A stretch of 64,000 nt of DNA, from NCBI GenBank assembly GCA_045587665.1, contig JAZNCT010000065.1, positions 95-64,094 of the forward strand, in the 5' to 3' direction. Of this stretch, positions 4,706 through 58,753 are shown piece by piece (within the stretch, counting starts at the first letter, position 1; every line of letters starts with the position of its first letter). A program made the position numbers and the translations under genes. The DNA is from Eubacteriales bacterium (GTDB lineage Bacteria; Bacillota; Clostridia; Oscillospirales; CAG-272). Under the pieces are notes generated by a model that saw nothing but the letters and a program-made list of their open reading frames with translations, had not been told where the DNA came from and ran no database searches.

Positions 4706-6106
4706 GTGAAAAAAAGCTTGTTTGCGCCTACGGATATGACCGTTGGCACACCTTGGAAAAGTATTGTTATGTTTACCCTGCCTATGCTTATAGGCAACAT
4801 CGCTCAGCAGCTATACAACACTGTAGACAGTATTGTTGTTGGGCAGTATATCGGAGATAATGCGCTGGCTGCTGTTGGCAGTGCAGGTCCGATAGTCAAT
4901 CTTCTTCTCGTTCTCTTTATAGGAATCTCTGCCGGAACAAATGTTATGATCTCTCAATATTTCGGGGCAAAAAACAGAGAAAGCCTTTCCTATACCGTTG
5001 GAAATTCCATTACGGTAACCGCCATTGCTTGCATACTTCTTATGCTTCTTGCAACACCTTTTATAAGACCTCTTCTCGTTGTGCTCAACACCCCCGAAAC
5101 TCTTATTGAAGGCTACAATGATTATACCATTCTCGACGCCTGCACAGAATATCTCACCATTTCTGTTATCGGAGTTGCCGGTATGGCTTTTTATAATATT
5201 CTCAGCAGCATAATCCGTGGAATGGGAGATTCGGTTTCGGCACTTATATATCTGCTTGTGGCAACAGTGGTAAACATAGCTCTTGATATTTATTTTGTTG
5301 CTGTTCTCAGAATGGGCGTTGGCGGCGTTGCTCTTGCAACGGTTATTGCGCAGATCATCTCATCGGGGCTTTGCCTTCTAAAGCTTGCAAAAATGAAGGA
5401 GCATTTTGATTTCAAGCTGAAACATCTTCGCCCTTCCTCTCTTTTTGTTAAAACTATAATACGCCTCGGTCTGCCTGCAGGCCTTACACAGGCTATATTT
5501 TCCTCTGCAATGATCATCGTTCAGTCACTTACAAACTGCTTTGAAGAGCAGTTCATTGCTGCAAACGTTGTCATTATGAGAGTTGACGGCTTTGCCATGA
5601 TGCCAAACTTTTCTTTTGGCACAGCTCTAACAACATATGCCGGCCAAAATGTTGGTGCAGGCCTATATGACAGGGTTAAAAAGGGCGCAAAGCAAGGCAC
5701 GCTGATTGCAGTTGGCGTTTCAAGTGCCATAACGGTTCTTATTCTGCTTTTCGGAAAAAATCTCATGTGGCTTTTTACAGACACAAAAGAGCTTGTTGAA
5801 ATGAGCTATAATCTGATGCTCATTTTGGCAGTCGGATATATCGCCATGGCCGTTACTCAAAGTCTTTCGGGAATAATGAGAGGAGCAGGCGACACAGTGA
5901 CACCTATGTGGATATCCCTTATCACAACTGTTGCCGTGCGTGTCCCAATTGCATACGGAATCTCATATCTCACAAGAACTCCCTCTCTGCCCTACGGTAT
6001 AAAGGAATGTATTCAGATATCGCTTCTTTCATCATGGGTTATCGGAGCTATCCTTACTGTCATCTTCTACTGCGGTGGAAAGTGGCAGAAAACTGCTATT
6101 CAATAA
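4706..6106 (+). CDS. MATE family efflux transporter
   Basis: 466-aa polytopic membrane protein. N-terminal MATE signature PMLIGNIAQQLYNTVDSIVVGQYIG. GTG start with GAGG RBS. Confidence 0.85.
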   Translation: MKKSLFAPTDMTVGTPWKSIVMFTLPMLIGNIAQQLYNTVDSIVVGQYIGDNALAAVGSAGPIVNLLLVLFIGISAGTNVMISQYFGAKNRESLSYTVGNSITVTAIACILLMLLATPFIRPLLVVLNTPETLIEGYNDYTILDACTEYLTISVIGVAGMAFYNILSSIIRGMGDSVSALIYLLVATVVNIALDIYFVAVLRMGVGGVALATVIAQIISSGLCLLKLAKMKEHFDFKLKHLRPSSLFVKTIIRLGLPAGLTQAIFSSAMIIVQSLTNCFEEQFIAANVVIMRVDGFAMMPNFSFGTALTTYAGQNVGAGLYDRVKKGAKQGTLIAVGVSSAITVLILLFGKNLMWLFTDTKELVEMSYNLMLILAVGYIAMAVTQSLSGIMRGAGDTVTPMWISLITTVAVRVPIAYGISYLTRTPSLPYGIKECIQISLLSSWVIGAILTVIFYCGGKWQKTAIQ

Positions 6107-6288
6107 ATTTAAAAAGGTTTAGCACGGCTATGAAAGAAAAGAGATTCTTGATTGCTTATGATATTCATCTCTTCCATATCAGTGATATGTCTTAAGCACA
6201 AAGGAAATATGCAGCTTTCTATTTACAACTTGAAAAAAAACGTGTATAATATATATGATATTTTGTTTTCTAAAGGAGAAATGTTGAT

Positions 6289-7566
6289 ATGAAGGATAGA
6301 AGAATAGAAACGATCTGCGTTCAGGGAGGCTACACTCCCGGAAACGGCGAACCACGTCAGGTTCCGATCTACCAGAGCACCACATTTAAATATGACACCA
6401 GCGAGGATATGGGAAAGCTTTTTGACCTTGAGGCTTCGGGATATTTTTATTCCCGACTGCAAAACCCCACCTGCGACACAGTTGCAAGCAAGATATGCCA
6501 GCTTGAAGGCGGCGTTGCCGCAATGCTCACATCCTCAGGTCAGGCGGCAAACTTCTATGCCACATTCAATATCGCAAACGCAGGAGATCATATCATTTCC
6601 TCATCCACCATATATGGCGGAACCTTTAACCTTTTTGCGGTTACTATGAAAAAAATGGGCATAGACTTCACCTTTGTTTCCCCCGATTGCTCTGATGAAG
6701 AGCTTGATGCAGCCTTCAGACCAAACACCAAGGCTGTTTTCGGAGAAACGATCGCAAACCCTGCCCTTACCGTTCTCGATATAGAGAGATTTGCAAAGGC
6801 AGCTCATGCACACGGCGTTCCGCTGATAATCGACAACACCTTTGCAACACCTGTTAATTGCCGCCCCTTTGAATTTGGTGCTGATATCGTTACACATTCA
6901 ACAACAAAGTATATGGACGGTCACGGTGCACAGGTTGGCGGATGTATCGTTGATTCCGGCAATTTTGATTGGCTCGCTCACGCCGACAAATTCCCTGGAA
7001 TGTGCACTCCCGACGACAGCTATCACGGCATAACATATGCCAAAAAATTCGGCAAGGCAGGCTATATAACCAAGGCTACTGCACAGCTGATGCGTGATTT
7101 TGGCTCAACCCCCGCACCGCAAAATGCCTTTATCCTTAATTTGGGTCTTGAAAGTCTTCATGTTCGCATGGCTCGCCACTGCGAAAACGGTCTCGCCGTT
7201 GCAAAATTCTTAAAGGATCACCCCATGGTAGACTGGGTAAGCTATCCTTCGCTTGAAGGCGACAAATATTATTCACTTGCCAAAAAATATCTTCCAAGCG
7301 GCTCTTGCGGCGTTGTTAGCTTTGGAGTTAAGGGCGGAAGAAAGGCTGCTGAGGCATTTATGAAAAAGCTGAAGATATTTGCTATCGAAACCCACGTTGC
7401 AGATGCACGAAGCTGCTGTCTGCATCCTGCGTCTGCAACTCACCGTCAGATGAATGACGAAGAGCTGAGAGCCGCAGGCGTTGGTCCTGAGCTGGTTCGC
7501 CTTTCCTGCGGTCTTGAAAGCGCAGCGGACCTTATCGCAGATCTGGCTTCCGCTCTTGAAGGATAA
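6289..7566 (+). CDS. metY: O-acetylhomoserine aminocarboxypropyltransferase (sulfhydrylase), PLP-dependent
   Basis: Cys/Met-metabolism PLP family with [14 protein letters not shown] and [11 protein letters not shown] (PLP lysine). Adjacent to metA. Confidence 0.85.
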
Positions 7567-7592
7567 AATATAATAATATTAAGAGGTATTAT

Positions 7593-8513
7593 ATGCCAAT
7601 TAAAATTCCAAACGAGCTTCCAGCTACAAGGATACTTGAAGAAGAAAACATATTTGTGATGACAGAAACCAGGGCTATCACTCAGGATATACGTCCGCTC
7701 AGAATTCTCCTGCTCAACCTTATGCCAACAAAGATAGACACCGAAACACAGCTTTCACGTCTGCTCAGCAATACACCTCTTCAGGTGGAGCTCTATCTTA
7801 TGCACACGGCAACTCACAAATCTCAAAATGTTGCCGAAGACCACCTCACGGCCTTTTACCAGACCTTTGACGCCTATAAAAACGAATATTTTGACGGCAT
7901 GGTGATAACGGGTGCTCCTGTTGAAAAAATGGATTTTGAGGAGGTTGACTACTGGAATGAGCTCTGCGAGATCATGGAGTGGTCAAAAACTCATGTGCAC
8001 AGCACCTTCCACATCTGTTGGGGCGCACAGGCAGGGCTTTACTATCATTACGGTATAAACAAACAGCCCCTAAAGGAAAAGCTGTTCGGAGTGTTCCCCC
8101 ACAAAGCCGACTATGCAAGATCTATACTCCTGCGTGGTTTTGACAATGTGTTCAGCGTGCCCCATTCTCGTCACACAACGGTGAAAAGAGAGGATATCGA
8201 GGCCGTGCCCGATCTTAAAATAATTGCCTCCTCGGAAGAGGCCGGCGTATATGCCGTTTCCTCTAAAAACGGTAAACAGATATTTATCACAGGACATTCG
8301 GAATATGACCCACGGACTCTTGAAAAAGAATATCTCCGTGATAAAAACGCAGGTCTTCCCATATCTGTACCCAAAAACTATTACCCGGGTGATGACGATA
8401 CCAAAGAGCCGCTTGTGACCTGGCGCTCACACGCGAACCTGCTCTATTCCAATTGGCTCAACTATTTCGTCTACCAAACAACCCCCTATGATATTAAAAA
8501 AATGTCAGAATAA
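7593..8513 (+). CDS. metA: homoserine O-acyltransferase MetA
   Basis: [11 protein letters not shown]....LLNLMP....ICWGAQAG is the typical MetA family signature. Confidence 0.9.
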
Positions 8514-23792: not shown

Positions 23793-23823
23793 AAGGGCTG
23801 GAGCATTTTTAGCTACAGCCCTT
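23793..23823 (+). terminator. terminator after aspS
   Basis: Stem aagggctg/cagccctt followed by a T-rich tail. Confidence 0.55.
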
Positions 23824-23825
23824 GA

Positions 23826-24280
23826 TTTTATGTATTAGATCTCCCCTTTGCCGAATTTGGCGGTCAGGTACTTATAGAAGATCTCCCACGCTCATGCCTT
23901 GGCAGAGACTCTACGAGATCGCAGAGATCCTTTCTGTTGACGACAGAACAGGCGTTATATTTGATACAAATCATCTCATGTGGCAGAATAGTTTTGATTT
24001 TACAAAGGCTCTTGGGCACAAGATAGTTTCAACACATTTCTCAGACTACGATTTTATTGTCGAAAATCACTATCTGCCGGGAGAGGGAAAGATCGACCGG
24101 CACTCTCTCATGCACGCCCTTGACGATGCCGGCTACAAGGGTCCCTTTCTTTATGAAATAGGAAGCAGAAGTACTCCAAAAGTTTCACGTCAAGCTGCTC
24201 TCACAGCTGAGGACCTTATCAAAAACCATGAGGAGCTTATAAACTTCAAAGATCCAACTCCACACGATATATTCATATAA
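23826..24280 (+). pseudogene. C-terminal remnant of a xylose-isomerase-like TIM-barrel (sugar phosphate isomerase/epimerase) gene, frameshifted
   Basis: One frame reads FGGQVLIEDLPR. Around 23885 the homologous reading switches frame to ...GVIFDTNHLMWQ...LPGEGKID...KGPFLYEIG. The N-terminal half is absent, since aspS ends only 45 bp upstream. Confidence 0.55.
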
Positions 24281-24464: not shown

Positions 24465-26042
24465 TCAGTGAAAAGTGAAAAATAAAAATCTCCCCGAGCT
24501 TTGTTCGGGGAGATTTTTTGGCTGGGCGGATGTGATGAAATCCGAACCATCTTGATTCGAAATATCTGATTCTGCGACGGAAAGTGCTTCAAGATCTTTT
24601 TGCACTTCTTCGTAGGTCACCTGTTTTTCTTTATTTATGTTATAGTAGATGACGAGCTTATCATCGTAAACATAAACGGCATTTATGAATGTATCTATCA
24701 TCTGCTGGCGGTAACTTTCATCTGTTACGTTGCCTGTAATGATGGCTTTTAACCAATTTCGATAATCTTCTTTTGTGAATGCATTTTTACTTGTTATCCG
24801 CAAATTTGCTAAGTCGATCTTCATCTCATCGATTTCGAAACTTAATTTCTCTATCTTCTCATTAAGCTTCTTAACCAAAAGCGAATTTTCGGCGTTTGCT
24901 ATCATAAGATCAACGGATGCATTTACCTCGCGTTCGGCTTTTTCGAGAGCTTTTTCCAGTTTCCCGATATTATCTGCCGAAAAATCCTTCTTGTATTGTT
25001 CATCTAACTTTTCCGCGATAAAATCTATTTTCTGAGGAGTAAGTATGTAATTGATGGTTTGCTCAACAACATATCTTTCAAGAACGTCCTTCTTTTCGTT
25101 TTTCTTTTTGCAGGTATGGTGTTTCTTTCGGGTGGCGCAAGTATAATAACGGTGAACGGTTCCGTCTCTTCCCTTGCCGCTCTCGCCTATCATATTAGAA
25201 CCGCACATTCCGCAGAACAGCTTTCCTTGCAACTGATATTTAATTTTGGCTTTCGAAGCAGCGGGTGCTCTTTTATTTGCTGCGATCTTTTCATTTACGA
25301 GCTTGAAAGTTTCATCATCAATTATTCTCGGATATATCTGCGGAATAATCTCATCCTGGAAGTTATACACTCCGATATATTTTTTGTTTCTCAAAATACT
25401 GTGTAGGCTTCCTATATGGAATTTCGATTTTAATCTAGGCTTAACGCCTCGGTCATTAAGATGCTTGACGATGTATGAGAGTCTCGTTCCTTTGGCATAT
25501 TCGTTAAAAATATACTTGACGATTTCTGCTTCGGCTTCATTTATTACGATCTTTTTATCCTTGACCTCGTACCCGTATGAGATAATTCCGCCGGTGAATG
25601 TTCCTCGGCTTCTTGCTACTTTCAGACCTCTTTTCACGTTCTGTGAGAGATTTGCCGAATAATATTCTGCCATACCTTCAAGCATGCTTTCGAGGATAAT
25701 TCCCATCGGATCTTCAGAGATGTTCTCCATGACAGAAACAACCTTGACATCGTTCTTTTTCAATTTTGATTTATATAAAGCACTGTCATAGCGATTTCTT
25801 GAAAATCTGTCCAGTTTATAAACAAGTACAACATCAAACTGTTTTTTCTCGGAGTCCTTGACCATCTGCTGGAACTGAGGACGGTGTTCTGCGTTTGTTC
25901 CCGTGCAGGCTCGGTCTATATAATTACCGATAACAGTGATATTATTTTGTTCTGCATATCTCATGCAGTCTTCTATCTGCCCTTCAATACTGCGTTCTGT
26001 CTGATTATAGCTTGAGTACCGCGCGTATATTACAGCGTTCAT
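24465..26042 (-). CDS. large serine recombinase (phage integrase)
   Basis: N-terminal resolvase domain MNAVIYARYSS...RSIEGQ with the catalytic Ser region, a recombinase domain, a Cys-rich zinc ribbon (CGMCG...YYTC) and a coiled coil. ATG 26042 follows GAAAGGAG. Confidence 0.9.
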   Translation of the reverse strand: MNAVIYARYSSYNQTERSIEGQIEDCMRYAEQNNITVIGNYIDRACTGTNAEHRPQFQQMVKDSEKKQFDVVLVYKLDRFSRNRYDSALYKSKLKKNDVKVVSVMENISEDPMGIILESMLEGMAEYYSANLSQNVKRGLKVARSRGTFTGGIISYGYEVKDKKIVINEAEAEIVKYIFNEYAKGTRLSYIVKHLNDRGVKPRLKSKFHIGSLHSILRNKKYIGVYNFQDEIIPQIYPRIIDDETFKLVNEKIAANKRAPAASKAKIKYQLQGKLFCGMCGSNMIGESGKGRDGTVHRYYTCATRKKHHTCKKKNEKKDVLERYVVEQTINYILTPQKIDFIAEKLDEQYKKDFSADNIGKLEKALEKAEREVNASVDLMIANAENSLLVKKLNEKIEKLSFEIDEMKIDLANLRITSKNAFTKEDYRNWLKAIITGNVTDESYRQQMIDTFINAVYVYDDKLVIYYNINKEKQVTYEEVQKDLEALSVAESDISNQDGSDFITSAQPKNLPEQSSGRFLFFTFH

Positions 26043-26120
26043 CCTGCTCCTTTCTGCATTTTCGTGAGACCACCAAAATGTCAATTCAAATTTGCAATAG
26101 TATGGCATTTTGAATAGATA

Positions 26121-26149
26121 TTGACAAAAATCGGCAGATATGATATACT
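26121..26149 (+). promoter_or_regulatory. promoter of toxin-like mRNA A
   Basis: TTGACA, 17 nt, TATACT, with TG upstream of the -10. Confidence 0.6.
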
Positions 26150-26266
26150 TATCGGCGGAGATCCGAAAGGAGATCCCGGAGAACACCATAAACGGTGGCG
26201 GTTGCTTCCCTTAATCGGGAATGCAGATTTCTTTTGTTTGCCTTCCCGAGAGGGGAGGTGATGCTG

Positions 26267-26356
26267 ATGTTTGTTACATGGGAACTGCTGTTCCTTTTTG
26301 CGGGTTTTATTCTCGCTCTGCTAACCTACATAGATAATCATAACAAAAAGAAATAA
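26267..26356 (+). CDS. 29-aa hydrophobic peptide, candidate type I toxin (holin-like toxin-type)
   Basis: Product is MFVTWELLFLFAGFILALLTYIDNHNKKK. SD GGGGAGG sits 8 nt upstream (ATG 26261 is an alternative start). One TM helix plus a basic tail. A paralog lies at 28280. Confidence 0.6.
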   Translation: MFVTWELLFLFAGFILALLTYIDNHNKKK

Positions 26357-26424
26357 CCGCCTCACTCCCACATAAGGCGGTTATTTCTATAATCGACAGG
26401 GGGCAACCGACATCGGTGCTCTCC
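26340..26424 (-). ncRNA. candidate antisense RNA A (antitoxin) convergent with the peptide gene
   Basis: Minus-strand consensus promoter TTGACA (26459-54), 17 nt, TATAAT (26436-31). Hairpin 26351-86 followed by ctttttgtt on the minus strand gives an RNA of about 85 nt overlapping the ORF 3' end. RNA ends are predicted, not measured. Confidence 0.5.
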
Positions 26425-26479
26425 GTTATTATTATATACCGCTTTATGCTTTTTGTCAATAGTTTTATTTGATTTATGA

Positions 26480-26547: not shown

Positions 26548-27651
26548 TTAGATTAACAGCCTTTGTATCTCCGGAATAGGAACTCTTGCTGGCAATACTT
26601 CGCGAGTTATAGCGTTAATTCCGCTTCCGATGTTATGAGCATAATATAAATAGCTATACATTTCCGCCGAGATGTCATTGAAATCCTCACACAGTGATGC
26701 TTTTACTGCATTAGGATAAATCAGTTTACAAACTATATCGGGATTTTCCAAGCACCAAGCGTATTTTTCTCTTTGAAGTTTCAGAGTTTCCGGAAATGCA
26801 AAGCCAATATCGGTTAAAAGGTGCACAGTACGCTTCTGCATTCCAGCTTTAACAATATCTAAAGGAGAAACATCCTCGGAAATACAAACTATGCCATCAC
26901 CAATAGCTTCTACGAGTATATTTTTATCAAGGCAAATATTTTCTAAGCCGTAATAGCTACTCAATATCGTTTCCCTGATTGCTTCAAGCGTTTCTTGTGA
27001 ATATTTATTAAAGAGTTTTGCCGTATATTCAAATTTTTCACATTTTTCTTCGGACAAGAGAGGGAAATCAAAATCAGCGTCTATTTCCCCCTTGCTTCCA
27101 TCTTTGTTCAATACTCCTAAAAGAACAGCCAATCGGTATATATGTTTACATGGCAGTTGACGTTCTTCAAAATCTCTGCAAGTGCATATTAACAAAGAGG
27201 TATCGTAAATCTCTCCACTGCCGATAAACTGTCCCTTTTGCATAGATGAAGATATGATCTCAGGGATACAGTCGACAGATCTATCAAATCTACTCCATTG
27301 TCCGGGTGAATTTGTTGAAGCCCAACAGCCGAATCCGGATATCATACCGGGTACGGCAGTATCGTTCTTCAAAACCTGCTTAACCTCATCTTCTTTTACT
27401 CCGTCTGCGTCTATAACACCGAGCTCTATAGCCAATCTATACATATGTTTGCACGGCATTTTTCTGCTTTTGAAATCAAAACACTCGCAATATTCAAGTG
27501 TTGTATGATATGTTCCGTGGCTTCCGCCGAATTTTCCGAATTTCTCCTCAACAGAAATATTTAAAGGAGTATTTTCTGCTCTTTTTGCTTTTTCAATTCT
27601 TTTATCTTGCCCCACGTAATCATGGCAATCCGACCATTTTGCAAAACTCAT
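26548..27651 (-). CDS. tandem SWIM zinc-finger protein of unknown function
   Basis: Two CxCxnCxH modules, CECFDFKSRKMPCKHMYRLAIELGV and CTCRDFEERQLPCKHIYRLAVLLGV, within a duplicated ~50-aa unit. The C-terminal ~180 aa has no recognised motif. Confidence 0.7.
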   Translation of the reverse strand: MSFAKWSDCHDYVGQDKRIEKAKRAENTPLNISVEEKFGKFGGSHGTYHTTLEYCECFDFKSRKMPCKHMYRLAIELGVIDADGVKEDEVKQVLKNDTAVPGMISGFGCWASTNSPGQWSRFDRSVDCIPEIISSSMQKGQFIGSGEIYDTSLLICTCRDFEERQLPCKHIYRLAVLLGVLNKDGSKGEIDADFDFPLLSEEKCEKFEYTAKLFNKYSQETLEAIRETILSSYYGLENICLDKNILVEAIGDGIVCISEDVSPLDIVKAGMQKRTVHLLTDIGFAFPETLKLQREKYAWCLENPDIVCKLIYPNAVKASLCEDFNDISAEMYSYLYYAHNIGSGINAITREVLPARVPIPEIQRLLI

Positions 27652-27875
27652 ATTGTTCTTACCAACTTTCTTAATATCGATGCCTCAAAATAATTCAATA
27701 AATTTACCTATATGCCCGTGAGGGTTTTTATTCTTTGTTATTACTTAATATTTCTTATTTATACCCATTTTTTACAATAAAATTAAAAAAACGAGACTAT
27801 TTGACAAAACATAACAAATTTTTCCATAAATTTCCATTATAATTAAATTACCAAATTATAGAAGGAGGAAATATT

Positions 27876-27989
27876 ATGGAAAATCAGAATTTACGTGAAG
27901 AACTGAAGTCCATCATTGAAGATGCCGATTTCAGTGAAAATGAACTGAAGATTTTAGTTGAAAAAGCAAAAGAAATTATGAATACATAA
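27876..27989 (+). CDS. 37-aa micro-ORF resembling the C-terminal helix of the neighbouring XRE proteins
   Basis: GAAGGAGG RBS 7 nt upstream. Product is MENQNLREELKSIIEDADFSENELKILVEKAKEIMNT. ELKILV aligns with ELKVLV of the XRE at 28931. Below the ORF-track size cutoff. Confidence 0.5.
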   Translation: MENQNLREELKSIIEDADFSENELKILVEKAKEIMNT

Positions 27990-27993
27990 TTTT

Positions 27994-28095
27994 TGGTTTT
28001 TGCTTTCAATTAAAAACTTCGCAAAAGACTTGAGCTGTTCGAGCTGTTTATCGTTCACCCGATAGATGTGTTTGAACAGCTCTCCTTTTTCTGCA
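27994..28095 (-). pseudogene. 3' remnant of a fourth XRE paralog
   Basis: Minus frame reads GELFKHIYRVNDKQLEQLKSFAKFLIESKNQK, homologous to the XRE C-termini. The HTH part is replaced by toxin module B and the stop codon is lost. Confidence 0.5.
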
Positions 28096-28101
28096 AAGTT
28101 C

Positions 28102-28130
28102 TTGACAAAAATTGTCAGTTGTGATATACT
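28102..28130 (+). promoter_or_regulatory. promoter of toxin-like mRNA B
   Basis: TTGACA, 17 nt, TATACT, homologous to 26121-26149. Confidence 0.55.
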
Positions 28131-28279
28131 TTTCTCGGATACCCGAGAGGGAATCCCGGAGAACACCATTACGGTGGCGGTTGCTTCCTTTCTTTAATTA
28201 CGAAAGGAACATCTTTGCTCCTTTCGATTAACATTGAAAGGAGTGGTGCTTATGATTTTCATTATGCACCTTGTTGAGC

Positions 28280-28357
28280 ATGGTTACATACGAAGCCTTA
28301 TTTGCTTTTGCTATGGTACTTATTGCGCTTGCGGCTTTATTTATCGACCGCAAATGA
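28280..28357 (+). CDS. 25-aa hydrophobic peptide, paralog of the 26267 peptide (possibly decaying)
   Basis: MVTYEALFAFAMVLIALAALFIDRK aligns with VTWELLFLFAGFILALLTYID. Relative to copy A, extra sequence of about 28 nt separates the SD (28236-43) from the homologous reading frame, and the SD-proximal ATG 28252 is out of frame with it. Confidence 0.45.
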   Translation: MVTYEALFAFAMVLIALAALFIDRK

Positions 28358-28359
28358 TA

Positions 28360-28446
28360 ACAAAAAAAGATAACCGCCTGACTTCCCAATCTAAACGGTT
28401 ATCTTTTAACTATTAGTACTGGGAGCAACCGTCATCGGTGCTCTCC
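28360..28446 (-). ncRNA. candidate antisense RNA B
   Basis: Minus-strand TTGACA (28481-76), 17 nt, TATAAT (28458-53). Hairpin 28367-28406 followed by tttttgtt on the minus strand. Confidence 0.45.
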
Positions 28447-28486
28447 GTTATTATTATATACCGCTTTTTATGTTTTGTCAATAGTT

Positions 28487-28903
28487 TTATTTGTTTTTGC
28501 TCTCATCTAAATATTTTATAAAAACTTTGAGCTGTTCGAGCTGTTCATCGGTCATTTGATCGATGCAAACGAACAGCTCTTTTTTATTATTGTCTATAGG
28601 CGATGCCGGGGCGGCTTCTTCTTTACCCAAAAGGAAATCAATCGATACGCCGAAATAGTCGGCTATATGATTTAACATTGATTTTATGTGCTCAAATAGC
28701 TCTTTCTCGTTGCCTTCTATTGGTGATGCTGGGGGATTTTCCTCTTTTTCTAAAAGATATTCTACCGATACATCAAAATAGTCAGCAATTTTCCTTAAAG
28801 TTGTTTGCCTTGGTACTGTATTATTATCCCAACACGAGAATGCTGCACCCGAAAGCCCAATAGCTTTGCATACTGCCGTAGGTGCTACATTTTTTTCGAA
28901 CAT
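28487..28903 (-). CDS. XRE-family HTH protein with internally duplicated linker module
   Basis: HTH region CKAIGLSGAAFSCWDNNTVPRQTTLRKIADYF. The segment IADYFxVSxxxLLxKEExxPASPIxxNxKELF occurs twice. C-terminal helix DQMTDEQLEQLKVFIKYL. Confidence 0.8.
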   Translation of the reverse strand: MFEKNVAPTAVCKAIGLSGAAFSCWDNNTVPRQTTLRKIADYFDVSVEYLLEKEENPPASPIEGNEKELFEHIKSMLNHIADYFGVSIDFLLGKEEAAPASPIDNNKKELFVCIDQMTDEQLEQLKVFIKYLDESKNK

Positions 28904-28930
28904 AATTTTATAAAAATATCTTTGAACATA

Positions 28931-29254
28931 TTACTTATCGTTTTTATTATCGATTAAATATTTCACCAAAACTTTGAGTTCTTGAATTTGTTCATCGGTC
29001 ATCTGATCGATGTGATCGAACAGTTCTTTTTTATTTTCATCAGCAGGTGAGGATGGGGCGGCTTTTTCTTTTTCTAAAAGATGTTCTACCGATACCTCAA
29101 AATAGTCAGCAATCTTCTGTAAATTTTTAGTGTTTGGCATAGCACCGTTTTTCCACTTTGTAATCGAGCCATGAGCAATGCCAATTTCTTTGACCACTTG
29201 CAACGGCTTCATTCTTTTTTCAGTGCAAAGATTATAAAAGTTATTCCAAAACAT
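28931..29254 (-). CDS. XRE-family HTH protein
   Basis: HTH region VVKEIGIAHGSITKWKNGAMPNTKNLQKIADYF plus the same C-terminal module. ATG 29254 lies 1 nt after the upstream stop (the track start at 29272 is TTG). Confidence 0.8.
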   Translation of the reverse strand: MFWNNFYNLCTEKRMKPLQVVKEIGIAHGSITKWKNGAMPNTKNLQKIADYFEVSVEHLLEKEKAAPSSPADENKKELFDHIDQMTDEQIQELKVLVKYLIDNKNDK

Positions 29255-29255
29255 T

Positions 29256-29579
29256 CTATTTTCTGCTATCAATTAAAAACTTCGCATAAGACTTGAGCTG
29301 TTCTAGTTGGTCAGCGGTCATTCGGTCGATGTGATCAAATAATTCTTTTTTGTTGTCATCTAAAGGTGATGCTGGGACGGTTTCTTCTTTTCCTAAAAGA
29401 TAATCTACCGATACTCCAAAATAGTCGGCTATTTGTGGAAGATATTTAGTGTAAGAGTTACTTTTGCCGCTTTTCCAATCGCTGAAAGCTTGTTTACCAA
29501 CTCCTAGATGTTCACATAAATCTTTTTGTTTTTTTGATTGAATAGATAATTCTTTTATAATATTGTTCAAAATATGCAA
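29256..29579 (-). CDS. XRE-family HTH protein, probable prophage repressor (CI-like)
   Basis: HTH region LCEHLGVGKQAFSDWKSGKSNSYTKYLPQIADYF. The track start 29732 lies inside its own promoter. TTG 29579 after AGGTAAG is the first plausible start, but it remains uncertain. Confidence 0.65.
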   Translation of the reverse strand: MHILNNIIKELSIQSKKQKDLCEHLGVGKQAFSDWKSGKSNSYTKYLPQIADYFGVSVDYLLGKEETVPASPLDDNKKELFDHIDRMTADQLEQLKSYAKFLIDSRK

Positions 29580-29637
29580 AAATCTTACCTGCCTTTCGTT
29601 TATATTCAACGAAATTCGAAAAAATCTTATTTTTGTC

Positions 29638-29666
29638 TTGACAGTAAGATATTTTCGTACTATAAT
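29638..29666 (+). promoter_or_regulatory. rightward early (lytic) promoter
   Basis: Consensus TTGACA, 17 nt, TATAAT. Confidence 0.65.
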
Positions 29667-29687
29667 GTTATTGCAAACAAAAAAATG

Positions 29688-29732
29688 TTTTACTGTTGCT
29701 TTTATTATACAGTAAAAAGATGTTTTTGTCAA
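29688..29732 (-). promoter_or_regulatory. leftward repressor promoter with 9-bp inverted repeat over the -10
   Basis: Minus strand reads TTGACA (29732-27), 17 nt, TATAAT (29709-04). Inverted repeat TTTTACTGT (29688-96) / ACAGTAAAA (29709-17). Confidence 0.6.
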
Positions 29733-32233: not shown

Positions 32234-32430
32234 TGGAGACTGTAAGAAACAAGATATACCGTGCCGCAGTATGGATATTAACAATAATTTGCACGCTGAT
32301 TGGATTCTGGATGCTCATATCCTTCTTTGACATTGTGACCCACAACATGGAGAGCTATGCCGGCTACGGTGAGTATCTTGAATGGAATTTCTTCACAACG
32401 ATGTGGGATGTTATCAGGGGGCAGACATGA
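32224..32430 (+). CDS. small membrane protein (68 aa)
   Basis: Hydrophobic helix AAVWILTIICTLIGFWMLISFF. Overlapping start and stop codons with both neighbours. Confidence 0.5.
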   Translation: MAMMETVRNKIYRAAVWILTIICTLIGFWMLISFFDIVTHNMESYAGYGEYLEWNFFTTMWDVIRGQT

Positions 32431-34913
32431 ATTACGACAATTTTTTAAAGGCAAAGGCGATCAGTGCGCCTGTCTCGGGCTTTGACGTTCCGCTCGATGA
32501 GATAAATGATAATCTGAAGCCTCATCAGAAAATAGCGGTACAGTGGGCTGTAAAGGGCGGCAGGCGTGCGCTTTTTGAAGCCTTCGGTCTCGGAAAGACA
32601 GCTCAGCAGCTCGAATACTGCCGTCTTGTTACCGAGCACACGGGCGGAAGGGCTCTCATTGTCCTACCTCTCGGAGTAAAGCAGGAGTTCACAGAGGATG
32701 CGGTAAATCTTTTAGGGCTCGAAAGTCCGCCATACATAAAATCACAAGAGGAAGCAAATGCGACCGATGCAAAGATCCTCATAACCAACTACGAGAGGGT
32801 GAGAGACGGTAACATAGACCCGAGGACCTTTGACTGCTGCTGTCTCGATGAAGCCAGCGTTCTCCGTTCCTTTGGCTCAAAGACCTATCAGACCTTCGTA
32901 GACAAATTCCGCGGAGTTCCCTATAAGCTCGTTGCGACCGCAACACCCGATCCCAACAAATACAAGGAACTGATACATTACGCAGGTTTTCTCGAGATCA
33001 TGGACACCGGACAGGCTCTTACACGCTTCTTTCAGCGCGACAGCACAAAGGCAAACAATCTGACAATATACCCACATAAGGAAGAGGAGTTTTGGCTCTG
33101 GATATCAACATGGGCGTTCTTCCTTTCGACTCCCGCCGATCTCGGCTTTGATGCGGAAGGCTATGATCTTCCGCCGCTGGATATTCGTTATCACTGCGTT
33201 AAGGATATGAGCTCTCCGACATTTGACCGTGACGGACAGATGCAGATGTTCCGTGATGTTTCTGCAGGACTGACGGAAGCCGCAAGAGAAAAGCGTGAGA
33301 GCATCGAAGCCCGTGCAGATAAGATGCTTGAGATAATCGAGAGCGACCCCGAAGCTCGTTTTATCCTTTGGCATGATCTGGAGGATGAACGACACGCCAT
33401 AAAAAAGAGGATCCCCTCTGCCACCGAGATATACGGTGCGCAAGACATTGATCTGAAGGAAAAGCATGTCATAGATTTTGCCCACGGAAGGATCAAATAT
33501 CTTGCAACTAAAAAGGAGATCAGCGGACAGGGCTGTAACTTTCAGCGGCACTGCCACAGGGCGATCTTTATGGGCATAGATTACAAATTCAACGATTTTA
33601 TTCAGGCGATACACCGCATTTACCGTTTTCTTCAGAAGGAAAAGGTCATTATCGACATAATCTACACCGAAAATGAAACCAGTGTTCTCCGTGAGCTTCA
33701 AGAAAAATGGCAGAGGCATGACGAGCAGACCGAGAAAATGCGCGAGATCGTGAAAAAATACGGCATCTATACCGAAAAGTTAGTGGAAAAGATGCAAAGA
33801 AGCATAGGAGTTGAGCGAGTGGAAGTCAAAGGAGCATATTTCACGGCAGTCAACAATGATTGCATACTTGAAACGAGAAAGATGGAAACCGACAGCGTCG
33901 GTCTTATACATACCTCTATCCCTTTTTCGAATCATTATGAATATACACCGTCCTATAACGATTTCGGGCACAACGAAGACAATGATAAATTCTTTGATCA
34001 GATGGACTATCTGACCCCGGAGCTTCTTCGGGTCCTTAAGCCCGGCAGAGTGGCGGCGGTGCACGTCAAGGACAGAGTTCTCTTCGGCAACGCCACGGGT
34101 GACGGTATGCCGACGATAGATCCTTTTTCCGAAATGACGGTATTTCACTTCATGAAGCACGGCTTTAGGTATATGGGAAGGATAACGGTTGTTACAGACG
34201 TTGTAAGAGAAAACAATCAGACTTACCGGCTTGGTTGGAGTGAGCAATGCAAGGACGGCTCAAAAATGGGCGTAGGATGTCCCGAATATATCCTTCTGTT
34301 CCGCAAACTTCCGTCAGATACCTCAAAGGCATATGCAGATGAACCGGTTACCAAGACCAAAGAGGAATATACAAGAGCGCAGTGGCAGATCGATGCACAC
34401 GCCTTTGAGCGTTCTTCGGGCGACAGGCTTATTACCAAAGAAGAGCTTATGGAGACGGACGTATCAAAACTACAGAAGCTCTATACAAAATACAGCCGCG
34501 ATAATGTTTACAGCTACAAAGAGCATGTGGAACTGGCTAAAAAGCTTGACGGAGAGGGAAAATTGCCCGCTACATTTATGGTGGTAGCTCCTGCATCATG
34601 GTCTGATATGGTATGGGATGATATAAACCGCATGAGGACGCTGAACAGCACTCAGGCAAGACGAAAGCTGCAGATGCACGTCTGCCCCTTGCAGCTCGAT
34701 ATCGTTGAGCGCATTATAAACCGTTATTCAAACGAGGGCGATCTCGTATATGACCCCTTTGGCGGTCTTATGACGGTACCTATGACGGCGGTTAAAATGG
34801 GTAGAAGAGGCTATGGCTGTGAGCTTAACCCGGAATATTTCCGTGACGGCGTTGGGTATCTGAAAGCCGCCGAAGATGAAATGGAAACACCGACACTTTT
34901 TGATGTTATTTAA
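32427..34913 (+). CDS. SNF2/DEAD-like helicase domain fused to an N6/N4 DNA methyltransferase domain
   Basis: Helicase motifs GLGKT and CLDEAS. C-terminal beta-class MTase with HTSIPFSN (motif IV position) before DPFGGLMTVP (AdoMet motif). ATG 32427 follows AGGGGG. Confidence 0.8.
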   Translation: MNYDNFLKAKAISAPVSGFDVPLDEINDNLKPHQKIAVQWAVKGGRRALFEAFGLGKTAQQLEYCRLVTEHTGGRALIVLPLGVKQEFTEDAVNLLGLESPPYIKSQEEANATDAKILITNYERVRDGNIDPRTFDCCCLDEASVLRSFGSKTYQTFVDKFRGVPYKLVATATPDPNKYKELIHYAGFLEIMDTGQALTRFFQRDSTKANNLTIYPHKEEEFWLWISTWAFFLSTPADLGFDAEGYDLPPLDIRYHCVKDMSSPTFDRDGQMQMFRDVSAGLTEAAREKRESIEARADKMLEIIESDPEARFILWHDLEDERHAIKKRIPSATEIYGAQDIDLKEKHVIDFAHGRIKYLATKKEISGQGCNFQRHCHRAIFMGIDYKFNDFIQAIHRIYRFLQKEKVIIDIIYTENETSVLRELQEKWQRHDEQTEKMREIVKKYGIYTEKLVEKMQRSIGVERVEVKGAYFTAVNNDCILETRKMETDSVGLIHTSIPFSNHYEYTPSYNDFGHNEDNDKFFDQMDYLTPELLRVLKPGRVAAVHVKDRVLFGNATGDGMPTIDPFSEMTVFHFMKHGFRYMGRITVVTDVVRENNQTYRLGWSEQCKDGSKMGVGCPEYILLFRKLPSDTSKAYADEPVTKTKEEYTRAQWQIDAHAFERSSGDRLITKEELMETDVSKLQKLYTKYSRDNVYSYKEHVELAKKLDGEGKLPATFMVVAPASWSDMVWDDINRMRTLNSTQARRKLQMHVCPLQLDIVERIINRYSNEGDLVYDPFGGLMTVPMTAVKMGRRGYGCELNPEYFRDGVGYLKAAEDEMETPTLFDVI

Positions 34914-52933: not shown

Positions 52934-54355
52934 ATGCTTAATCATGGAATAAATACCTACAAAAGCGGAACTAACTTTTCAGCCGTAAAGACTGCGGCTG
53001 TGGGTATTCCGCTTTTTATAGGCGCATGGCCCTGCCACATGGCAGGCGGCTATGTGGACGCTCCCGTCCTTGCCACGAGCTTTGATGAGGCGAAGGAAAA
53101 GGGCGGCTACAGCTATGAATGGAGAAATGCCGATTTTTCGCCTAAGTGGAATCTCTGCCAGGCGATGTATTCTCATTTCAAGCTCTTTGGAATGTCCCCT
53201 GCGATATTTGTCAATGTTTTTGACCCTTCAAAGCACACAAAGGATCTCGCTGAGACTTCCGTAAAGGTCGAAAATCACGTTGCAAAGCTCTCGGCGGACG
53301 TTATTGCCGACGGTCTCATTATCAAATCGGGTGATCAGTCACTCAAGGAAGGAACAGACTATGAGCTCATCTATGACGATGGCTGTCTTATCGAGCTTCT
53401 GAAGAACGGGGCAGGCTATGATGCGGTAAGTCTTACCGTTTCGGGCAAGACTGCCGATACTTCGATGATAAAGGCTGCCGATATCGAGGAAGCTGTGGAG
53501 AAGGCTGACCTTTGCAAGACCGTTCTCGGAATCGTTCCCGATCTTATCTGTGCTCCCGGATGGTCGAAGAATCCCAGCGTTGCCGCTGTTATGACGGCAA
53601 AAGCTGCCGCTATCGGCGGCCTGTTCTCCGGAAAGGCTGTATGTGATATCGATAGCTCTGCTGCAGGTGCTCCTACATATGATAAGGTTCTAAAGTGGAA
53701 GAACGACAACGGCTATACAGACGAGAACATGATCGACGCTTGGGGCATTGCCAAGGTGGGCGATTATCTCTTTGATATGTCCCTCATCATCTGTGGAAAG
53801 ATCGCATCGGTTGATTTCGGCAACGCAGGCTGCCCATATGAATCCCCCTCAAATAAAACACTGGCTATCTCAGGACTTGTAAACGAAGCCGGAGATGAGG
53901 TGAATTTGACGCCTGCACAGGCGGATGTCGTATCTGTCAATGCAGGCGTAGTTACAGCCTTTAACTTTGGCAGCTGGGTGCTTTGGGGTAACCACACAGC
54001 GTGCTACCCGGCAAGTGCCGATGTTGCAGAATATTTCATTTGCACAAGCCGTATGCATGATTGGATAAACAACACTTTCACAAACACCTTCTGGAGTGAG
54101 ATCGACAAGCCTATGACGAGAGTCCGCATAGATTCCATAATCAATAGCTTCAACTCTTGGCTCTCGGGCCTTGTTCATGAGGGCAAGCTATATGGAGGAC
54201 AGGTGGAATATATCGCAGACAACAATCCTGCCGCATCTCTTGTGGGCGGCAAAATTCGTCTCGACACCGCATTTGCGTCTCCCGTTCCTATGCAGCAGAT
54301 CAATATGCACTCCGAATTTGATGTAGATACTCTCGTAAACGCACTTAACGGATAA
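52934..54355 (+). CDS. contractile tail sheath protein
   Basis: 473 aa, followed by the tube, chaperone and tape-measure genes. Confidence 0.8.
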   Translation: MLNHGINTYKSGTNFSAVKTAAVGIPLFIGAWPCHMAGGYVDAPVLATSFDEAKEKGGYSYEWRNADFSPKWNLCQAMYSHFKLFGMSPAIFVNVFDPSKHTKDLAETSVKVENHVAKLSADVIADGLIIKSGDQSLKEGTDYELIYDDGCLIELLKNGAGYDAVSLTVSGKTADTSMIKAADIEEAVEKADLCKTVLGIVPDLICAPGWSKNPSVAAVMTAKAAAIGGLFSGKAVCDIDSSAAGAPTYDKVLKWKNDNGYTDENMIDAWGIAKVGDYLFDMSLIICGKIASVDFGNAGCPYESPSNKTLAISGLVNEAGDEVNLTPAQADVVSVNAGVVTAFNFGSWVLWGNHTACYPASADVAEYFICTSRMHDWINNTFTNTFWSEIDKPMTRVRIDSIINSFNSWLSGLVHEGKLYGGQVEYIADNNPAASLVGGKIRLDTAFASPVPMQQINMHSEFDVDTLVNALNG

Positions 54356-54374
54356 AGTAAGGAGGAAAAAGCAA

Positions 54375-54887
54375 ATGAAAGCAGGTGTTATTAACTTTGC
54401 TGTTTATGAAAACGGCAGTGAATATCTCGGTATTGCGAAGGTGACCCTTCCCGATACCGAAAATAAAACCTTTACAGTAAACGGTGCAGGTATCGCAGGC
54501 GATATCGATATGCCCGTACCCGGACACAGAAACGCCATGACGGCAACGATCGAGTTTACCGATGCCACCGAGGCGGCATATAAGCTGGCGGAGCACCGCA
54601 AGCACACTATAGATCTTCGTGCGGCGCATGAGGAGTATGACAGCACAGTGGGTGCTATTGCAGTCAAGGCGTATAAGCATATTCTTGACGTTATTCCAAA
54701 GAAGCTTGGCGGCGGAGATGTTGCTCCCGCAAGTCCTCAGAGCATTTCGGGCGAATACAGCGTGCTCTCCCGCAAGGACTATATCGACGGCGTGCTTGTC
54801 CGTGATATAGACCCTATCAACTTTAAGGACGTTGATGCGTCCGGCAATGACAGCCTTGCGGCAGTGAGAAGCGCACTTGGCAAGTAA
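54375..54887 (+). CDS. tail tube protein
   Basis: 170 aa, directly after the sheath gene. Confidence 0.75.
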   Translation: MKAGVINFAVYENGSEYLGIAKVTLPDTENKTFTVNGAGIAGDIDMPVPGHRNAMTATIEFTDATEAAYKLAEHRKHTIDLRAAHEEYDSTVGAIAVKAYKHILDVIPKKLGGGDVAPASPQSISGEYSVLSRKDYIDGVLVRDIDPINFKDVDASGNDSLAAVRSALGK

Positions 54888-54952
54888 TTTTATCAGCGGA
54901 GAGGGGCAAAAGCCTCTCTCCTGATTTTTAAACATGAAAAGGAGTTATAACC

Positions 54953-55312
54953 ATGGAAGATAATAAGATTCTCGATAATTTCAACGAAGAAACTGACGAT
55001 ATAGAGAAGGCAAAGCCTCAGCTTACATATGAGCTGAAAAATCCTGTTACTTACAACGGTAAGGAATTTAACGCACTTAACATTGACTTCGAAAAGCTCA
55101 AAGGAAAGGACGCAAGAGCGATCACTGCCGAGCTTCAGCGGCTGGGCATAGCGGTTCTTGTTCCCTCACTCTCGGAAGAATATCTTATAAGGACGATCGC
55201 GAAAGCCTGCGAAGAACCCATCGGCGCAGACTTTTTCGATCTTTTGTCTATTTTTGACTTTAATAAGCTGGTAGGAAGAGCAAGGGCTTTTTTGCAGAGG
55301 TCGGAGTTGTAA
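54953..55312 (+). CDS. tail assembly chaperone (gpE/G-like)
   Basis: 119 aa, between the tube and tape-measure genes. Contains a slippery site near its 3' end. Confidence 0.7.
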   Translation: MEDNKILDNFNEETDDIEKAKPQLTYELKNPVTYNGKEFNALNIDFEKLKGKDARAITAELQRLGIAVLVPSLSEEYLIRTIAKACEEPIGADFFDLLSIFDFNKLVGRARAFLQRSEL

Positions 55313-55470
55313 AAAACGACGACACAAGTGATTTAATGAGACTGTGTCTGATCCTATCCCGAGAGACATATACCCCGATATCGTATTGGCTTGATATTCC
55401 TTTGCGGGAGCTTGGGGAGTGGATAAGGTCATATATAGACCTCATAGACGAGCTGAAGAACAAGAGGTGA
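55288..55470 (+). CDS. -1 frameshift extension of the tail assembly chaperone (gpE+E' / GT-like)
   Basis: Slippery heptamer T TTT TTG at 55288-94 in the zero frame. The -1 frame is open to TGA 55468-70 and encodes ...YWLDIPLRELGEWIRSYIDLIDELKNKR. Confidence 0.65.
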   Translation, partial: FFAEVGVVKNDDTSDLMRLCLILSRETYTPISYWLDIPLRELGEWIRSYIDLIDELKNKR

Positions 55471-55474
55471 GGAT

Positions 55475-58400: not shown

Positions 58401-58753
58401 CCGCACACGGATTGGCACTGGTTGGGGAGTATGGTCCCGAGCTCGTATATTTTGGCGGCGGTGAGGTGGTTTATAACGCAATGAAAACAGAGCGGATGCT
58501 AAAGAAATTCCAGGCATGGCAGGATGCTCCGAGCCTTTTAGAGCGGGTTCAGGCATCGCCGCTCGTTATAAACAATACTTTGAGCGGACCGAGTGGCGGA
58601 AAATACGAGATCGCTATCGCCCCTGTTTTCCATATCACAGAAGGTGAAAATTCTTCCGAGAAAATGGAAGAATACAGTAATATTGTTGCAGATAAGGTTC
58701 TTGATCGCTTGAACGAGATCGGAATAGATGGAAAGAGAGGGGCATTTACATGA
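55475..58753 (+). CDS. tail tape measure protein
   Basis: 1092 aa, coiled-coil rich, with a central hydrophobic stretch. TTG start after GAGGTGAGGA. Confidence 0.9.
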   Translation: MATTYDISFKLQAGLAASFGGTFEKAQKKLMETQKEIQALGKVQGNISAYQKQQAAIERCRQSQEKYKTQIENVKKELQALIGKEGEHAAGTSQLSNKIIDLKEKYEKVRLEEERRCETLKKLDDSLKGSGINTENLSGESQRLGEELKDLRSEQDKAAEAAEKYRNKSVSAFTAAGEALAASGILRTLKEGYDLMAGITTGAASYADEIGTVSVQYSIAAEDLQAFYYAAELVDVSAETLTSTMSRNIRAMNSARDGTESYVEAYEKLGIKVTDADGQLRDSETVYWEVIDALGEMENETERDAVAIELLGRSAQQVNTLVAAGSGVIKGYAAEAKRAGYVMNNETLQACMALDDEIQRQNSNLMALKNTIGAQLAPEYTKLKQLENEALVALTAFADEHPELVKGITAGTVAFGGLTAAIVACTTAAKLLGSVSGIGTILAVAGGAGALVGVLAAMTSATEDQNDAYAELTATSRKQAKEIDALKAEYAELVNAGKKNTHEAWQLEKQIKSLSEEYESSKQTAQAHREELESIITTLQNSREEYENTINSIDSEYESSIALVTKLGELSGGSQMVAQNQALIVPIIDELNERYEGLGLAIDFTTGKINMGSDQLKQIAKEQAAVLKQQADMKAYADALSNSAKAENAYKEACKELKALEEEYWKAYRAFNAEPSGNAIEKFFLSFTKDYGAEAQMNAAKQSLIEQGKIVVDLREKYEELADSVEYYEKVLGFTTDAIESETDALGDYQSAVAYAVNAVQSDLEALAEKYKEAYNAAYESITGQYDLWDNAAEVVPKSIADINNALATQAAYWSDYNKDMASLTERGENIDGLAEVIASFADGSADSVNAIAGMVDASDEDLKAMVENFKEMQEQEEAAAKAIRENALTELDEIELQMITSIENLDLSMEAEKAARNTMEAYLKGLEEGCEDITKLLSDLPVLSAMRNNPFIAPYERNRSELYPIEAYASGTENAAHGLALVGEYGPELVYFGGGEVVYNAMKTERMLKKFQAWQDAPSLLERVQASPLVINNTLSGPSGGKYEIAIAPVFHITEGENSSEKMEEYSNIVADKVLDRLNEIGIDGKRGAFT

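Follow-up and report, generated by a model that had tools for sequence, protein, structure and literature searches.

We analyzed a 64,000-nucleotide stretch of DNA (the window) from an Eubacteriales bacterium (GenBank assembly GCA_045587665.1, contig JAZNCT010000065.1, positions 95 to 64,094 of the forward strand; Genome Taxonomy Database lineage Bacillota, Clostridia, Oscillospirales, CAG-272) and found that a gene for a 367-amino-acid (aa) protein with two SWIM zinc fingers, located between the integrase and repressor genes of a prophage, is optional prophage cargo (a moron). Its product belongs to a protein family that is almost confined to temperate phages and prophages of Bacillota, where nearly all members are found, and within this family it is, by sequence comparison, a unique mosaic that documents mosaicism at the level of domains. 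An earlier note on this DNA had proposed a role in defense or exclusion. This proposal is partly supported, the genomic context making the protein a credible candidate for a phage-exclusion factor. Far from being one of a kind, the protein takes its place, as a mosaic, in a family of more than 1,000 clusters. The gene is an intact open reading frame (ORF) with an ATG start that is kept in the closest homologue, P0002, and its kilobase has the lowest content of guanine plus cytosine (GC) in the window (33.9%).

26548..27651, minus strand: double-SWIM protein gene, 367 aa, coordinates including the stop codon (identified by ORF, Pfam, and homologue alignment)

The genomic context of the family was counted in 72 dereplicated clusters with enough flanking sequence. 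In 41 of them, the gene order was XRE-type repressor, SWIM gene, integrase, with all genes co-oriented and the gaps often 0 to 60 bp; the integrase was a serine recombinase in 28 clusters and a tyrosine integrase in 13. An XRE gene was found upstream only in 8 clusters and downstream in another 8, 1 cluster had a tyrosine integrase and no XRE gene, and 14 had neither an XRE nor an integrase gene. Presence in this slot is variable: among 70 IMG/VR relatives of the window integrase (32 to 59% identity) with a usable upstream region, a SWIM-family gene was located in the XRE-integrase gap of a single one (L179), and the gaps of the others were empty or contained genes for a trypsin-like peptidase, an ion channel, Uma2, ImmA, or unknown proteins. 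The marks of a moron were found in this variable presence, in the location of the window gene in the lowest-GC kilobase, in a promoter-like site upstream of it that matches the consensus at 10 of 12 positions, and in a relative (L165) in which a GC dip and a promoter occur together. The SWIM moron is probably expressed in the lysogen.

A second recurrent slot was found in sheath-and-tube tail modules, between the tail-assembly chaperone gene and the tape-measure gene (L063, L065, L067/L135/L136, L132, and L165-167). In L165, the SWIM gene (7001-7834) has a GC content of 43 to 49% within a phage of 56 to 63% GC and has its own predicted promoter 38 bp upstream (TTGATA-17-TATAAT, 11 of 12 consensus positions); this putative promoter and the GC dip of about 15 points are a classic moron signature. 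The tail gene clusters of P2-like phages have cargo hot spots such as Z/fun, and the SWIM family members in tail modules are likewise accompanied by a promoter of their own and a GC dip. The insertion point is a different one, however, the proteins are unrelated, and the tail module of the window (52934-58753) is without such an insert. Homologues are not consistently located in phage replication or recombination modules, the placement that the earlier note had set against its own interpretation.

Pfam identified SWIM (PF04434) as the sole family in the 367-aa protein, in two stretches and well above the cutoff (40.2 bits versus 19.6 bits; E = 2.3e-10), and all eight zinc ligands (C55, C57, C67, and H69; C156, C158, C168, and H170) are invariant among 44 homologues, so the two fingers that had been read from the letters are real. 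They are part of an internal duplication (residues 3 to 86 versus residues 107 to 187; 40% identity over 84 aa; E = 6e-20). The duplication had been seen correctly, with a unit size of about 50 aa that has to be corrected to about 84 aa. The parts of the protein are encoded as follows.

27394..27651, minus strand: SWIM unit 1, residues 1 to 86, ligands C55/C57/C67/H69
27334..27393, minus strand: linker between the SWIM units, residues 87 to 106
27091..27333, minus strand: SWIM unit 2, residues 107 to 187, ligands C156/C158/C168/H170, 40% identical to unit 1
26629..27051, minus strand: core of the C-terminal domain (C-domain), residues 201 to 341, helical with three short strands, acidic, and fast-evolving
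26737..26868, minus strand: weak HeH/SAP-like helix-loop-helix motif in the C-domain, residues ~262 to 305, suggested by several sources

A full-length AlphaFold2 model, built on the 44-sequence alignment, gave each SWIM unit two helices, three strands, and a zinc knuckle plus helix. Residues 87 to 113 were disordered, reaching the start of unit 2 (predicted local distance difference test [pLDDT], <50), and the interdomain confidence was low (predicted template modeling score [pTM], 0.48). Pfam detected no SNF2, transposase/DDE, or M78 match in the protein, which also contains no HExxH motif, hydrophobic segment, membrane anchor, or lipobox, and the product is predicted to be a soluble cytoplasmic protein without an enzymatic domain. 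Its isoelectric point (pI) is 5.15, and that of the C-domain (residues 192 to 340) is 4.55. A search of PDB sequences with the whole protein gave no match, PHROGs gave one weak family of unknown function only, and NCBIfam gave nothing relevant. The SWIM domain was reportedly described by Makarova, Aravind, and Koonin in 2002. The window protein resembles other SWIM proteins in the CxCx(9)CxH signature, which it has twice, and in the predicted strands-then-helix fold; it differs from them in having no fused or adjacent SNF2 helicase, MuDR/MULE transposase, or kinase, in a unit of ~84 aa that reaches well N-terminal of the 38-position Pfam model, and in being joined to a family-specific C-domain.

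The C-terminal region, in which the earlier note had recognized no motif, proved to be a conserved domain of the family and not an orphan: members have a SWIM unit of ~84 aa followed by the C-domain, both detectable by profile, and the window protein is collinear with P0018, P0010, P0004, and P0002. When the C-domain (about 150 to 170 aa) was modeled alone with 77 sequences, a confident fold was obtained (pLDDT, 88; pTM, 0.79) that is mainly helical with three short strands. No residue of the domain is conserved in ≥90% of the sequences, and it is therefore unlikely to be an enzyme. Divergence is much faster here than in the SWIM unit, with mean pairwise identities among 89 single-unit proteins of 21% and 47%, respectively, and the family median pI is 5.5 for the C-domain (acidic) versus 7.8 for the SWIM unit (near neutral to basic). 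A C-domain hidden Markov model recovered 321 of the gathered sequences. In searches for the C-domain on non-SWIM N termini, a single-sequence search with the region returned the query alone, and a profile search returned 11 proteins of 232 to 281 aa, 5 of which have a precomputed SWIM match.

Foldseek, which had been named as a route to structural relatives of the C-domain, returned no significant one from PDB (full model and C-domain model) or from BFVD (nothing at E ≤0.001). Human FAN1 accounted for all 12 of the top 12 PDB matches (E = 0.26 to 2.2; probability ≤0.75; query-normalized template modeling score [TM-score], 0.28 to 0.37), the best BFVD match was a phage "SAP domain" protein (E = 1.1), and a profile search of PDB sequences gave the HeH-type motif of FluMu gp35 (2OUT; E = 0.045). 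Pfam found HeH in 6 of the 77 C-domain members (best E = 0.0024) and SAP in 2, with the window protein itself unmatched. These signs are coherent yet subthreshold, and they hint weakly at a HeH/SAP-like motif in the C-domain. The putative motif, with a consensus of the form L..eL...l...Gi....K..Li.W, would resemble FluMu gp35 and the SAP-containing DNA-binding region of FAN1 in having a short helix followed by an extended loop and a second helix; unlike in these proteins, the surrounding C-domain is acidic and matches no solved fold.

A word-indexed search identified 497 relatives (90% clustering), and an exhaustive search identified 1,076 clusters at 50% identity (E ≤1e-3), 280 of them with E ≤1e-10. 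The matches are mainly from Oscillospiraceae, Lachnospiraceae, and other Clostridia, with some from Tissierellia and Negativicutes and a few from metagenome-assembled genomes labeled as other phyla. Of 151 genomes from the taxonomic family of the host, 4 contained a relative, and neither of the same-genus genomes did. With 618 blocks of the assembly collection listing a protein of the L067 type, phage of this type are very common. No paper on the family with SWIM unit and C-domain was found in the literature.

ORFs were called in 163 to 164 fetched loci, from which profiles for XRE proteins, serine recombinases, tyrosine integrases, and ImmA were also built. Among the distinct ORFs of 163 loci, one SWIM unit plus C-domain was the predominant architecture (91 ORFs; for example, P0010, with 281 aa), and two units plus C-domain, as in the window protein and P0018 (347 aa), were found in 9. 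One SWIM unit only was found in 20 ORFs, two units only in 21, and the C-domain only in 1. Additional parts occur in some members: P0002 and P0003 have one SWIM unit, the C-domain, and a BRCT domain (of the LigA type in P0002; E = 5e-26 to the LigA C terminus), and P0004 and P0029 carry extra membrane segments, transmembrane segments being present in 11 of 246 homologues. Pfam gave no informative extra domains for ten long homologues. The 397-aa SWIM-family protein of L179 (5775-6968) has a subthreshold Pfam match to the LigA N-terminal domain Ia (E = 2e-4), which is the second ligase-derived piece in the family beside the LigA-type BRCT of P0002/P0003.

Tandem family genes were observed in both slots. 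The tail slot of L065 contains two (4969-5820 and 5863-6768), the first of which encodes a C-domain without a detectable SWIM unit, the sole such case. In L001 (8001-9811; also in L002-L004), tandem paralogues share one lysogeny slot, a 347-aa protein with two units and C-domain being followed by a two-SWIM-only protein of 205 to 209 aa; the next gene encodes RhuM in L001 and L004 and Uma2 in L002 and L003. An exact-sequence look-up of the L145-type relative returned nothing, and its neighbors, a DUF4942 methyltransferase and a Rep-like protein, are uninformative.

The mosaic structure of the window protein, which forms a singleton cluster, is seen in the relationships of its parts. Unit 1 is 81% identical to the sole SWIM unit of P0002, and unit 2 with the C-domain has at most ~33% identity to anything else. 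The nearest relatives of either unit come from single-unit proteins, not from the P0018-type two-unit lineage. At the nucleotide level, homology to the locus of the closest relative (L006/L084) ends at position 27419, just past the first SWIM helix.

The immediate surroundings of the gene contain the following features.

24465..26039, minus strand: integrase of the prophage, a large serine recombinase, encoded downstream of the SWIM gene in the same orientation
26108..26475, no strand assigned: repeat copy A, type I toxin-antitoxin-like module in which a plus-strand promoter (26121-26149) and a small hydrophobic ORF are followed by a bidirectional terminator (26349-26388) and, in convergent orientation, by a minus-strand promoter of consensus sequence (26431-26459)
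27855..27882, minus strand: candidate promoter of the SWIM gene, TTTCCA-16-TATAAT (10 of 12), the best promoter-like match on its upstream side
27877..27989, plus strand: ORF of 37 aa that diverges from the SWIM gene and has a strong ribosome-binding site (GAAGGAGG)
27990..28088, minus strand: remnant of an XRE repressor 3' end, 99 bp (repeat family D3), 70 to 75% identical to the corresponding ends of the three complete genes
28089..28497, no strand assigned: repeat copy B, type I toxin-antitoxin-like module with a plus-strand promoter (28102-28130) and a minus-strand promoter (28453-28481)
28487..29732, minus strand: XRE/CI-type repressor paralogues, three in tandem, encoded upstream of the SWIM gene in the same orientation

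The integrase consists of Resolvase, Recombinase, and Zn_ribbon_recom domains, and the three XRE repressors are without a LexA-type cleavage domain. Transcription of the SWIM gene against its neighbors, as had been described, holds for the immediate small plus-strand ORFs (the two type I toxin ORFs and the 37-aa ORF) and not for the integrase and the three repressors, which are co-oriented with it. The 37-aa ORF (MENQNLREELKSIIEDADFSENELKILVEKAKEIMNT) is placed between repeat copy B and the SWIM gene. Next to it, the XRE remnant is the trace of an old recombination joint on the upstream side of the SWIM cassette. The three XRE/CI paralogues and this fourth 3' end (27990-29732) share a repeated C-terminal module (families D1-D3), so this immunity region is the product of repeated duplication and recombination. 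At the lysis-lysogeny switch, two perfect-consensus sigma-70-type promoters (12 of 12 positions each) stand face to face, a rightward one at 29638-29666 and a leftward one at 29704-29732, the latter being that of the XRE repressor array. A comparison of the switch region with the SWIM promoter region for a shared operator gave no common word of ≥10 nucleotides. At the integrase end, the prophage is adjoined by a 152-aa ORF (23822-24280, plus strand) that matches only the C-terminal part of a xylose-isomerase-like TIM-barrel family (profile positions 139 to 234 of 249) and is probably a host gene split by prophage integration.

Toxin modules flank the SWIM gene, as the earlier note had stated, in the form of two direct repeats of ~370 bp with convergent promoters, which lie ~2 kb apart and are 78 to 90% identical in blocks. 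The modules have a plus-strand promoter (TTGACA-17-TATACT with TG), an ORF for a hydrophobic peptide of ~25 to 31 aa, and a convergent minus-strand promoter of perfect consensus; the bidirectional terminator was detected in copy A. The small hydrophobic peptide ORF, the convergent antisense promoter, and the shared terminator are like those of bsrG/SR4-type type I toxin-antitoxin systems of Bacillus prophages. The Rfam match to BsrG is weak, however, and far under the gathering score (E = 0.42; 18.5 bits versus 55), and the modules of the window lie on either side of the SWIM gene without belonging to it. Recombination between copies A and B would delete the SWIM cassette.

The company that the SWIM gene keeps in the lysogeny slot includes defense genes. 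In 79 loci with an XRE gene, a SWIM gene, and an integrase gene, the slot contained the SWIM gene(s) alone in 42 and further cargo in 37. Strong PADLOC matches were obtained for 7 of 20 sampled slot neighbors, an upper-leaning estimate, since the first batch favored large ORFs: AbiD (2 neighbors; E = 8e-65 and 3e-94), PD-Lambda-1 (2 neighbors; E about 1e-84), PDC-S19 (1 neighbor; E = 1.5e-145), PDC-S05/RhuM (1 neighbor; E = 3e-146), and PDC-S13 (1 neighbor; E = 5.5e-114). The integrase-repressor gap is thus a variable cargo slot and a hot spot of defense genes, in agreement with the earlier note, and in relatives these genes or Uma2 are found in it beside the SWIM gene. In L074 (5740-10437), ImmA and the SWIM gene are followed by an unbroken series of three candidate defense genes of PADLOC (PDC-S19, PDC-S13/Bro-N, and PDC-S05/RhuM) before the integrase, forming a compact prophage defense island.

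Our preferred reading, which we hold tentatively, is that the SWIM protein may protect the lysogen against other phages as a superinfection exclusion or defense factor of the binding type. In this reading, the prophage would express the protein, whose action would depend on stoichiometric binding rather than on catalysis. Nucleic acid or a conserved protein would be the conserved ligand bound by the conserved SWIM unit(s), and specificity toward a variable partner would come from the fast-diverging C-domain. We infer expression in the lysogen, the binding activity, and the antiphage role alike. Exclusion and defense cargo of lysogeny modules is well known from lambda cI-rexAB, lactococcal Sie2009, Ltp of Streptococcus thermophilus, and prophage-mediated defense of mycobacteriophages. 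The SWIM gene is similar to such cargo as an optional, low-GC, co-oriented gene between repressor and integrase, in a slot that in relatives holds AbiD, PD-Lambda-1, and RhuM-type genes; its product differs in having no sequence or fold similarity to these proteins and no membrane anchor or lipobox. A membrane-acting exclusion protein of the Sie2009 or Ltp type was considered for the window protein and set aside, as it has no hydrophobic segment.

Several observations weigh against a protective role. The SWIM protein matched 0 families of PADLOC-DB 2.0 at E ≤0.1, and the guilt by association with defense genes is modest (7 of 20). A search of 50,697 phage records gave 1 weak, unannotated match, so no characterized phage carries the family, and no member was found on plasmids. 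The candidate promoter at 27855-27882 matches the consensus at 10 of 12 positions only. An acidic protein with an acidic C-domain is ill-suited to be a general DNA binder, which weakens a simple DNA-binding idea, and none of the likenesses to HeH/SAP and FAN1 reaches significance (E = 0.045 to 1.1; TM-score, ~0.35). Finally, the gene is coupled tightly to repressor and integrase genes in many phages, which would also fit a regulatory role.

The acidic C-domain and the absence of a catalytic signature also agree with a factor directed at the host or at its defenses, in which the SWIM unit would bind a conserved host protein and alter host physiology, recombination, or the SOS response, or shield the prophage from host immunity. 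The SWIM domains of Sws1/Shu2 and of MEKK1 bind proteins. The high conservation of the SWIM unit in phages of many host families suggests a conserved cellular ligand, and some relatives are fused to a LigA-type BRCT. We nevertheless consider this explanation doubtful: placement among bona fide defense genes in the lysogeny slot is more typical of defense cargo, no partner has been identified, and counterdefense genes are usually early lytic genes.

That the gene usually stands directly after the repressor gene and directly before int, with ends that often overlap or nearly touch, raises the question of an accessory role in the lysogeny switch, either as a sensor or antirepressor-like adaptor or as a cofactor of integrase or its directionality, linking a signal such as DNA damage to the repressor or the integrase. 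Also in line with such a role are the lack of a LexA-type cleavage domain in the window repressors and the nature of SWIM, SAP-like, and BRCT domains as modules of the DNA damage response type. It is nonetheless quite unlikely. A SWIM gene accompanies only 1 of 70 integrase relatives, the family pairs with serine and tyrosine integrases alike, some members are located in a tail operon far from any repressor gene, and in the window a terminator-bearing toxin module parts the SWIM gene from the repressor operon. In a comparison that is a noisy test, divergence of the SWIM protein was uncorrelated with that of the adjacent XRE protein (Spearman coefficients of 0.04 for the C-domain and −0.04 for the SWIM unit; Mantel P values of 0.26 and 0.77) and gave Spearman coefficients of 0.12 (C-domain) and 0.08 (SWIM unit) with the integrase; the idea that the SWIM protein recognizes its own repressor or integrase gained no support from this comparison. 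A recombination directionality factor or integrase cofactor in particular is disfavored by the two integrase types, the 1 of 70 relatives, and this correlation of 0.08 to 0.12.

A substitute for ImmA was considered as well. The order of XRE repressor, middle gene, and integrase is shared with the ImmR-ImmA-Int operon of ICEBs1 and many Bacillota phages, but the SWIM protein is without the HExxH motif, which is present in 34 of 40 ImmA-like M78 proteins, and such proteins occur beside the SWIM gene. Since 28 of 164 loci have both genes in one operon, typically in the order XRE-ImmA-SWIM-Int, the SWIM protein is not a replacement for ImmA, and this candidate was rejected.

The mosaic structure could also mean that the gene is a passenger without current function, a recent recombination product in which the 5' end of one family member was fused to a whole second member and is carried between recombinogenic repeats. 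The singleton status, the identity of 81% to P0002 in unit 1 and of ≤33% to anything in the remainder, the stop of nucleotide homology to L006 at 27419, and the ~370-bp repeats on both sides with an adjoining XRE remnant would all be expected of such a product. We find this very unlikely, because the frame is open across 367 codons with all eight zinc ligands intact, both domains fold confidently in models, and the P0018-type lineage likewise has two SWIM units plus C-domain.

SNF2 helicases and MULE-type transposases are the classical settings of SWIM domains in bacteria and eukaryotes, but a detached partner of an SNF2-like helicase, or a relic of a MULE-type transposase, is extremely improbable: the window does encode an 843-aa SNF2-like helicase (weak likeness to DrmD, DrmA, and BrxH) fused to an N6/N4 DNA methyltransferase 4.7 kb away (32382-34913, plus strand; 79% nucleotide identity to L006/L084), and the closest relative, L006, has both genes, but the helicase gene lies on the opposite strand in the early operon, a helicase homologue is found within 6 kb of the SWIM gene in only 2 of 163 loci (L006/L084), a count on which the SNF2 partner was rejected, and the protein has no transposase or DDE domain. 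The view that the SWIM protein stands alone, with neither an SNF2 nor a transposase partner, was thereby supported.

Whatever its function, the SWIM family usefully marks two hot spots of cargo in the prophages of Bacillota. An extended form of the protective reading, which we consider speculative and rather unlikely, is that the family may represent an undescribed class of nonenzymatic, single-protein prophage immunity factors. A constant SWIM "grip," sometimes doubled, membrane-anchored, or accompanied by a LigA-type BRCT, would read something conserved in incoming DNA or in the machinery of replication and recombination; the choice of excluded phages would lie with the C-domain, which is acidic, hypervariable, and would be of novel fold; and new specificities would arise by domain-level recombination, as in the mosaic of the window. 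If the SWIM protein is protective, the family would add a very widespread, binding-based antiphage mechanism to the prophages of gut Clostridia, and the bacterial SWIM finger would gain a concrete role outside SNF2 helicases.

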